64,000 bases of DNA from Candidatus Marinacidobacterales bacterium (GCA_965224085.1 CBDCYI010000009.1:268057-332056), one strand, 5' to 3'. Positions 12,427-13,691 are shown, numbered from the stretch's first letter. Numbers and translations are program-made. The notes: a model not told the origin generated them from the letters alone.

Positions 12427-13251
12427 TTGAAATCCCGGTCGATGCTGCTCACCCTGTTTCTTGCGGGCTCGCTTGCGAACGCCCCTAGTGTCGATGAAAT
12501 CCTCGAAAACGCGATCGAGGTTCAGCGCCTGCATGAAGAAGCCGGCAACGAGGTCAAATACGACTACGAGCTTCTGAGCGTCACCGAAAAACTCGACAAA
12601 AACGGGGACGTCAAAGTAGTCGAGGAGCATCTTTTCGAAAGCCGTCACATCGACAACGTTGCCTATGAACGCCTCGTCAAGAAGGACGGAAAGACGCTCA
12701 CACAAAAAGAGCTGAAGCGCGAGGCCAAGCGCGAGCGAGACTTTCGCAAGAAGCTCGCAAAAGGCGAAGCGCGGCACAACGATGCCGAACAACGCGTCGC
12801 TTTCGATGAGGAGCTCATCGTTCGCTACGACTTTGAGCTCGACGACGTCCGCGATGTCTCTGGTCGCAAGACCTACGTCTTGTCCTATAGGCCCAAGCCC
12901 GGAAAGCTCCCAGAGAAAAAGCGCATGGATCGCTTACTCAATAAAACCACGGGCTCTCTTTGGATCGACGCGGAGACGTTCCAGATCGCGCAGGTCGAGT
13001 TCGAGCTCACGGATCGCGTCAGGCTCTGGTGGGGCATGCTCGGATCGATCTCTAAGATGAAGGGAACCTTCATGCGCCATCCGGTGAGCGAGGGCATTTG
13101 GCTCCCCGAGCGCGCCAATTTCTACCTTCAGGGCCGCGTCTTGTTTCGCTCGTTGCACGTACGTGAGAAGGTCGTCTGGAGCGATTTCGAGAGGCGACGA
13201 CCCAAAGTCGCGGAGAACCCTTCGTCGAAGAACCCGGAGAGCCCAAGATGA
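12427..13251 (+). CDS. Hypothetical secreted protein (possible LolA-like/outer-membrane lipoprotein-sorting fold)
   Basis: Signal peptide MKSRSMLLTLFLAGSLANA; Lys/Glu-rich; no catalytic motif recognised. Confidence 0.35.
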   Translation: MKSRSMLLTLFLAGSLANAPSVDEILENAIEVQRLHEEAGNEVKYDYELLSVTEKLDKNGDVKVVEEHLFESRHIDNVAYERLVKKDGKTLTQKELKREAKRERDFRKKLAKGEARHNDAEQRVAFDEELIVRYDFELDDVRDVSGRKTYVLSYRPKPGKLPEKKRMDRLLNKTTGSLWIDAETFQIAQVEFELTDRVRLWWGMLGSISKMKGTFMRHPVSEGIWLPERANFYLQGRVLFRSLHVREKVVWSDFERRRPKVAENPSSKNPESPR

Positions 13252-13691
13252 TCCAAGTCGGTCAACTCGCCCCGCCCTTTGCAGTGCAAAACGATCTAGG
13301 CGAGACCGTGCGCCTGAGCGACTACAAGGGCAAGAACGTCATCCTCTGGTTCTACCCCAAGGCTGACACCCCTGGGTGAACGCGCGAAGGTTGCGGGTTC
13401 CGCGACAACAACCAGCAGTTCAACGACAGGAACGTCTATGTCCTCGGCGTTAGCTTCGATACGGTGGACGAGAACCGGGCGTTCGTGGAGAAGTTCAGTT
13501 TCAACTTTCCGCTTCTCTGCGATACGAACCGCGCGATCGGTTTGGCCTATGGAGCTTGCGACGACAAGAGCGCGTCTCATGCAAAGCGGGTCAGCTACTT
13601 GATCGGCGCGGATGGAAACGTGCGGAAGGCCTATCCACAAGTCGACGCTGGCGCCCATCCCGACGAGATTCTAGCGGACCTCGACGCGTAG
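13248..13691 (+). CDS. bcp: Bcp/PrxQ-type peroxiredoxin with in-frame TGA (candidate selenocysteine) at the peroxidatic position
   Basis: Single reading frame from ATG 13248 through TGA 13377-13379 to TAG 13689-13691. Translation: [43 protein letters not shown][TGA][10 protein letters not shown]...; this matches the Bcp motif FYPKxxTPGCTxxxCxFRD with TGA exactly where the peroxidatic Cys codon sits, and the resolving Cys conserved 5 residues later. The ORF track only reports the 3' 75-aa piece. Confidence 0.65.

Follow-up and report, generated by a model that had tools for sequence, protein, structure and literature searches.

The 64,000-nt stretch of DNA analysed here (the window; Candidatus Marinacidobacterales bacterium, GCA_965224085.1, CBDCYI010000009.1:268057-332056, coordinates counted from its first letter) carries at 13248-13691 a gene for a peroxiredoxin (Prx) of the Bcp/PrxQ type, whose frame contains one TGA at the codon of the peroxidatic residue. 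A full-length selenocysteine (Sec)-containing Bcp is very probably produced from this gene by Sec insertion directed by a hairpin of the selenocysteine insertion sequence (SECIS) type. A Bcp/PrxQ protein with UGA-encoded Sec at the peroxidatic position had been proposed in an earlier, sequence-only reading, and the proposal is supported by the conservation of the TGA, by selection past it and by a hairpin specific to the Sec forms. Since the frame is moreover intact and conserved, TGA alternates with Cys codons in relatives and the selected hairpin fits the criteria for bacterial SECIS elements (bSECIS), the gene is interpreted here as a Sec-Bcp gene.

The gene and its predicted product

The features of the gene are as follows.

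13236-13241, + strand: putative Shine-Dalgarno sequence GGAGAG, 6 nt before the ATG, as read off the sequence
13248-13691, + strand: predicted coding sequence of the Sec-containing Bcp/PrxQ peroxiredoxin, 147 residues with U at residue 44, AhpC-TSA domain full length
13248-13250, + strand: ATG start, opening the frame MIQVGQ...
13377-13379, + strand: UGA codon 44 at the peroxidatic position of PxxxTxxU, very probably decoded as selenocysteine
13390-13406, + strand: candidate bacterial SECIS-type hairpin, 13390-13396 (GUUGCGG) pairing with 13400-13406 (CCGCGAC), loop GUU at 13397-13399
13392-13394, + strand: UGC codon of the resolving cysteine C49, peroxidatic position +5, within the 5' arm of the SECIS stem
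13689-13691, + strand: TAG, the true stop of the frame

The TGA is the only in-frame stop of 13248-13691 before the TAG; the ATG, TGA and TAG positions given in the sequence-only reading were exact, and the frame is otherwise open, as it had stated. The peroxidatic motif of the encoded protein reads P37-K-A-D-T41-P-G-U44 and is followed by T-R-E-G-C. Together with C49, this motif confirms that the stop falls exactly at the catalytic Cys and that the resolving Cys is kept.

With Cys placed at the TGA, residues 4-127 match positions 1-123 of the 124 positions of the Pfam profile AhpC-TSA (PF00578; E 6.9e-36). The match covers almost the entire profile, so the domain spans both sides of the TGA. 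The closest solved structures found in a PDB search are Bcp proteins (3DRN, 5e-25; also 2YWN and 3GKK). The TGA aligns to the peroxidatic position of Bcp1 (3DRN), C49 to the second active-site position of this structure, and R114 in AKRVSYLI to the conserved active-site Arg in PARITFVI of 3DRN. The top NCBIfam matches are NF006960 (Bcp; 114.5 bits, cut-off 140) and NF053650 (PrxQ; 112.6 bits, cut-off 260). By these scores, which lie below the equivalog cut-offs, the predicted protein is a divergent member of the Bcp/PrxQ subfamily.

Selenoproteins of this kind are long established in bacteria, and automated gene calling regularly breaks them into two pieces. The same happens here: open reading frame (ORF) calling yields AhpC-TSA products of 43 and 75 aa in all four assemblies that hold the gene, in agreement with the earlier suggestion that it is missed by ORF calling.

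Relatives and selection on both sides of the TGA

The DNA pattern FYPKxxTPG-TGA-T was scanned over species-representative genomes (one per species). At least 119 loci were found; about 0.5 would be expected at random, according to our own estimate for uniform-composition sequence of equal size, and the TGA motif is therefore not a product of chance. In 116 of the 119 loci listed, the TGA is followed by 90 or more open codons of recognisable Bcp sequence. The taxa carrying the motif include Acidobacteriota, Binatia, Planctomycetota, Myxococcota, Acidimicrobiales, Eremiobacterota, Marinimicrobia and others.

A search with the protein recovered its 79 closest relatives in metagenomes. Codon 44 is TGA in 69 of them and TGC or TGT in 10, and in every case the frame stays open for about 101 codons beyond it. 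In protein databases the picture is different: C stands at the TGA position in 109 of the 120 best matches, and the best full-length match in a collection of 5.8 billion proteins is at most 66% identical. Dozens of closer, TGA-bearing relatives exist as DNA; they are absent from the protein database because the TGA forms were cut in two.

Comparison with locus L025 (91% nucleotide identity) gives a ratio of nonsynonymous to synonymous substitution rates (dN/dS) of 0.12 upstream of the TGA (43 codons) and 0.14 downstream of it (103 codons). Judged by these ratios, purifying selection persists 3' of the TGA.

These data bear directly on the view that the locus is a stop-mutated pseudogene, i.e., an ordinary Bcp gene in which TGC has become TGA and a dead 43-residue fragment is left. 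A single base change would suffice for this, gene callers treat the locus as two fragments, and no Sec machinery is encoded in the window (see below). Degraded-looking sequences after the TGA do occur within the family: L050 and L119 have early stops (after 18 and 37 codons), and L098 is frameshifted with a low-complexity continuation. These three could be true pseudogenes or assembly errors inside an intact family. A pseudogene is nevertheless very unlikely at the window locus. The dN/dS after the TGA is similar to that before it, and the downstream frame is intact here, in 116 of the 119 loci listed (out of at least 119) and in all 69 close TGA relatives. Moreover, independent nonsense mutations cannot make the TGA form the majority in a clade, and a hairpin under selection is carried by the TGA forms alone. 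The possibility of a stop-mutated pseudogene, named in the sequence-only reading as a condition that would overturn it, has thus been checked, with dN/dS and the 69 of 69 open frames both speaking for a functional gene.

The TGA as a genuine and non-reassigned codon

Four assemblies, derived from three sequencing data sets, carry the 444-nt gene without any difference, TGA included: two contigs of ENA ERZ25067264 (45x and 13x coverage) and the Logan assemblies of ERR13605531 and ERR13602196. The window itself maps to the 45x contig, ctg836333_45x_l. The left flank of the 13x contig of ERZ25067264 is unlike that of the 45x contig. In the 13x contig (L201, same ENA sample), a transposase of the Transposase_mut family (PF00872) lies at 565-1854 between Ser/Thr kinase and B12-radical-SAM genes, and downstream of the TonB receptor the sequence of this contig departs from that of the window. 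The differences of L201 indicate strain heterogeneity in the sample.

A sequencing or assembly error, with TGC or TGT as the true codon of an ordinary Cys-Bcp, could be considered, since the source looks like a long-read metagenome assembly and a gene of the old yellow enzyme (OYE) type at 61122-62595 of the window appears frameshifted. Such an error is exceedingly improbable given the identity of the gene in the 45x and 13x contigs and in the Logan assemblies of two other runs. The TGA is also present in L025, L128 and 67 other relatives from unrelated projects, and the SECIS-specific codon choices described below would not come along with an error.

The chance of a genome-wide reassignment of TGA to Trp or Gly (code 4 or 25) is practically negligible. 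In its favor could be cited four database homologues (P0010, P0016, P0021 and P0054), which were deposited with W at the Sec position (TPGWT); in P0047 this position is L. The W entries most likely result from translation of TGA as Trp through a wrong choice of genetic code for short metagenomic contigs, and they disguise selenoproteins as seemingly full-length, inactive-looking proteins. Against reassignment, TGA serves as the normal stop of 12 of the 23 long ORFs of the window, including the gene directly upstream of bcp, and is the commonest stop there. No other coding frame of the window is interrupted by TGA, and an enzyme with Trp or Gly as its peroxidatic residue would be inactive.

The SECIS-type hairpin

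Folding of the 64 nt after the UGA, a check proposed in the sequence-only reading, recovers in the minimum-energy fold a hairpin at 13390-13406 with a 7-bp stem, 17 nt after the UGA. Folded alone, it has a free energy of -10.0 kcal/mol (z -2.7), and 3 of 200 shuffled sequences are as stable. The criteria described for bSECIS are a loop of 3-9 nt with G in the two initial positions, a stem of 4-16 bp, a spacing of 16-37 nt and a minimum free energy of -7.5 kcal/mol or lower (PMC13188914). The window hairpin agrees with all four (loop GUU, 7 bp, 17 nt, -10.0 kcal/mol).

The structure drawn in the sequence-only reading was another one: a bulged CGCG...CGCG hairpin (pairs 7-10/25-28 and 13-14/23-24) with the 8-nt loop UUGCGGGU. 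This candidate was rejected as being in the wrong register. Over 117 family members its positions are paired in 53.7% of cases, compared with 54.3% in shuffles, so that pairing shows no excess, and no covariation was found. The expectation of a SECIS-like hairpin downstream of the UGA in this same stretch was nonetheless sound, since one exists at 13390-13406; only the structure proposed for it is unsupported.

The hairpin overlaps the conserved peptide G-C-G-F-R-D and could be mimicked by amino-acid conservation, for which reason three controls were used. When the window peptide was recoded 1000 times from the codon usage of the window, 0.7% of the synonymous recodings were as stable as the native hairpin and 5.6% reached -7.5 kcal/mol. 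Within the same clade, the mean free energy of the hairpin is -13.1 kcal/mol in Sec forms versus -6.8 kcal/mol in Cys forms (Mann-Whitney p 8.5e-7), and all seven pairs form in 66 of 69 Sec relatives. The codons of the 63 distinct Sec forms encoding GCGFRD are near-fixed as GGT TGC GGG TTC CGC GAC, with a third-position entropy of 0-0.28 bits; this value is 0.84-1.58 bits for the three preceding codons and 0.92-1.46 bits for the same six codons in Cys forms. The codon and folding data support selection acting on the predicted hairpin in TGA forms only. The SECIS stem would thus be built from codons of the active-site motif, the resolving-Cys codon being part of it.

Substitutions in relatives keep the pairing. 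Where the resolving-Cys codon UGC is replaced by UCC (Ser), the paired Arg codon changes from CGC to CGG, which is compensatory. Where it is replaced by CGC, U16-G28 becomes C16-G28, a one-sided change that retains the pair, and in the variant GCG...UUG CGC the closing pair is flipped. Pair 17-27 is GC in 98 cases, CG in 6 and AU in 1; pair 20-24 is GC in 103, CG in 3 and AU in 2. The apical loop is GUU in 105 of 110 sequences, and some relatives lengthen the stem to 8-11 bp. Family-wide, 65 changes on both sides of a pair were counted against 37.6 expected, a number reached in none of 500 shuffles.

When one fixed register is imposed on the family in all its diversity, pairing reaches 60.8%, since the register is shifted or bulged in different subfamilies. 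For this reason the clade-restricted comparison and the synonymous randomisation were relied on instead. In a strict search allowing no bulge, 135 of 186 Sec forms pass the bSECIS criteria; of the synonymous randomisations 9.9% do so, and of the Cys forms 3 of 10.

Proposed mechanism of UGA decoding and catalysis

According to the proposed mechanism, the UGA at 13377 would not be read as a stop during translation. The hairpin at 13390-13406 would recruit SelB carrying Sec-tRNA(Sec) and thereby deliver selenocysteine to the ribosome, after which translation would run 103 codons further to the TAG ending at 13691. In the protein, the selenolate of U44 (motif PKADTPGU) would attack the peroxide. 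The selenenic acid formed would be resolved by C49, five residues on, to a selenenylsulfide, which could then be reduced by thioredoxin. SelB binding, selenium incorporation and the catalytic cycle are proposed here by analogy with established bacterial Sec insertion and Bcp chemistry.

Sec-insertion machinery and the identity of the inserted residue

Several observations weigh against the Sec-Bcp reading. Neither NCBIfam scans of about 40 ORFs nor tblastn with E. coli SelA, SelB and SelD sequences detected selA, selB or selD in the 64-kb window. No tRNA-Sec was found there either; the window holds no tRNA at all. When the window was scanned for further coding frames broken by TGA, only off-frame artefacts appeared, so that no other selenoprotein gene accompanies bcp. 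The fold of the whole 64 nt after the UGA has a z of only -1.14, and the hairpin is so conserved in the close clade that the evidence from covariation comes mostly from more distant members. No Rfam family covers the hairpin: nothing in the window passed the gathering thresholds, and a relaxed cut-off of E<=10 around the gene brought up only noise. No bacterial SECIS family was among the matches, and this null result counts as uninformative. Finally, the evidence speaks for SECIS-dependent recoding of codon 44, whichever amino acid is inserted there.

Sec machinery was found in a related locus. In L032, from a metagenome-assembled genome (MAG) labelled Candidatus Binatia, selB is located at 1129-3033 (+ strand; TIGR00475, 391 bits, cut-off 242), convergent with and adjacent to a Sec-bcp with the TGA motif at about 3369-3400 (- strand). 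No further gene of the Sec machinery came to light in 1.35 Mb of related loci; tblastn of all loci with E. coli SelA, SelB and SelD hit this selB alone, and TIGR00475 then confirmed it. A tRNA-Sec search of 1.3 Mb of these loci found none and is uninformative, since only 6 tRNAs in total are present there. Selenoproteins have been recorded for Acidobacteria (PMC1794560). From the record of the phylum and the selB of L032, a Sec-decoding trait would be expected in the source organism.

Another view is that the UGA is recoded to Cys or another residue by a SelB-like factor with a selC* tRNA-Cys or by an acidobacterial suppressor allo-tRNA. Both selC* tRNA-Cys(UCA) accompanied by a second SelB and allo-tRNA suppressors of Acidobacteria are documented (PMC5389517). 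However, selC* was reported in Firmicutes, Thermodesulfobacteria, Nitrospirae and Proteobacteria, not in Acidobacteria (PMC5389517), and the alternation of Sec and Cys at a redox site, together with TxxU, is the signature of the established Sec-Prx family. A general suppressor would have no need of a hairpin at one particular position, and most often it is TGA that serves as the normal stop (12 of 23). Recoding to a residue other than Sec is accordingly considered very unlikely, and Sec insertion at codon 44 is preferred.

Genomic neighbourhood

The bcp gene is the fourth gene of a tight same-strand cluster, in which it is preceded by three tightly packed genes.

9958-11121, + strand: CPA2 antiporter
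11125-12423, + strand: class-V aminotransferase
12427-13251, + strand: 274-aa protein of unknown family, ending in TGA

The gaps within the upstream cluster are 3 nt, and the start of bcp overlaps the upstream ORF by 4 nt, its ATG sharing ATGA (13248-13251) with the TGA stop of that ORF. This overlap suggests translational coupling of bcp to the upstream ORF. The antiporter, aminotransferase and 274-aa protein genes upstream of bcp likely form one operon. A promoter and terminator scan around the cluster yielded nothing beyond shuffled expectation.

The window is syntenic with L025 (Acidobacteria MAG) across 8 kb and with L072 (Ca. Marinacidobacterales), which places its lineage in the Acidobacteriota. 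The upstream gene order is kept in L025, L072, L121, L122, L036 and others, only within the close lineage.

The best NCBIfam match of the aminotransferase is PvdN, with weaker similarity to SufS/CsdA and to the selenocysteine lyase SclA. An aminotransferase near Sec-bcp is also found in L137, L141, L143, L148, L149 and L156. As a family-wide partner of Sec-Bcp this enzyme was rejected: a class-V aminotransferase accompanies bcp in 13 of 189 Sec loci, every one of them from a close relative, and in 0 of 10 Cys loci. Since the association is limited to the close lineage, the simplest explanation is inherited synteny, which is probably the case. There remains a small chance that one of two less conventional arrangements applies. 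Either the hairpin of this acidobacterial lineage directs insertion of a residue other than Sec (for instance Cys, delivered by a tRNA-Sec-like tRNA together with a SelB paralogue or by a suppressor allo-tRNA), or the SufS/selenocysteine-lyase-like aminotransferase at 11125-12423 and Sec-Bcp constitute a dedicated selenium-handling module.

Other regions of the window show further features. The OYE/2,4-dienoyl-CoA-reductase-like gene at 61122-62595 (minus strand) is split over two frames: the ORF 61762-62595 represents its N-terminal part, and 61122-61898 matches positions of about 146-376 of a BaiCD/FadH-type profile. This suggests a frameshift near 61760-61900, due either to a pseudogene or to an indel error of long-read assembly. 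A cluster for aromatic acyl-CoA metabolism, unrelated to Sec-bcp, occupies 55620-60706 (+ strand) and encodes bifunctional salicylyl-CoA 5-hydroxylase/oxidoreductase (NF006101, 1281 bits), a member of the enoyl-CoA hydratase family (NF006107) and an enzyme of the benzoate-CoA-ligase family. Between 30977 and 49734, large ORFs of 682, 1790 (33044-38416), 573, 515 and 617 aa have no NCBIfam match at E<=1e-20.

Significance

The window gene is an unannotated member of the well-known Sec-Prx family in an Acidobacteriota genome, and the gene itself is ordinary. This family has been catalogued since the first surveys of prokaryotic selenoproteomes in the early 2000s, so the biological novelty is low. 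The value of the observation lies chiefly in annotation: all four assemblies containing the gene have it split in two. Sec, not Cys, appears to be the usual form in this acidobacterial clade of soils and sediments (69 of 79). Inventories of peroxide defence and estimates of selenium use for such organisms are therefore biased unless gene calling is selenoprotein-aware.

Comparison with known systems

PrxU of Eubacterium acidaminophilum (NF040737), an experimentally characterised Sec-peroxiredoxin, is a thioredoxin-dependent enzyme with Sec at the peroxidatic position, as proposed for the window protein. It is a longer protein (233 profile positions) from another Prx subfamily, whereas the window protein has the Bcp/PrxQ architecture with the resolving Cys at +5. 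Identification of the window protein as PrxU was rejected, its score being 54 bits against the NF040737 cut-off of 270.

Prx-like thiol:disulfide oxidoreductase selenoproteins (UxxC) are distinguished from Sec-Prx (PMC1088965). The window protein is not one of them, since T-P-G-U followed by T-R-E-G-C corresponds to UxxxxC.

Cys-type Bcp/PrxQ proteins (E. coli Bcp, NF006960; Sulfolobus solfataricus Bcp1, 3DRN; Xanthomonas BCP, 3GKK) share with the window protein its length, the fold, the FYPKxxTPG-[C/U]-T...C-GFRD region and the conserved Arg. They differ in having UGY at the peroxidatic residue, where the window gene has UGA plus the SECIS hairpin.

The SECIS of E. coli fdhF is the prototype of bacterial SECIS elements. 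In comparison with the consensus bSECIS model, the window hairpin is alike in being a stem-loop that lies inside the coding sequence shortly 3' of the UGA and has a small apical loop starting with G then U. It is minimal, with a 3-nt loop and no evident bulged U.

The closest counterpart is the Sec-Prx family itself, which is placed in COG1225, the COG of Bcp. In the surveys of Zhang & Gladyshev it was described as a previously known selenoprotein family (COG1225, TxxU) and ranked second in abundance in the Sargasso Sea selenoproteome, with 43 genes (PMC1088965). A comparative study of 2006 listed 12 Sec-Prx genes and five independent Cys-to-Sec conversions (PMC1794560), and a review of 2026 places Sec-Prx under PF00578 with the motif PxxxTxxU (PMC13188914). 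The window gene has in common with this family (COG1225/PF00578) the domain, the TxxU motif, widespread Cys homologues and a bSECIS just downstream inside the coding sequence. Nothing essential differs: the databases searched have no annotation of the window copy as a single protein, and it belongs to an Acidobacteriota lineage in which the Sec form is in the majority among the closest relatives (69 of 79).

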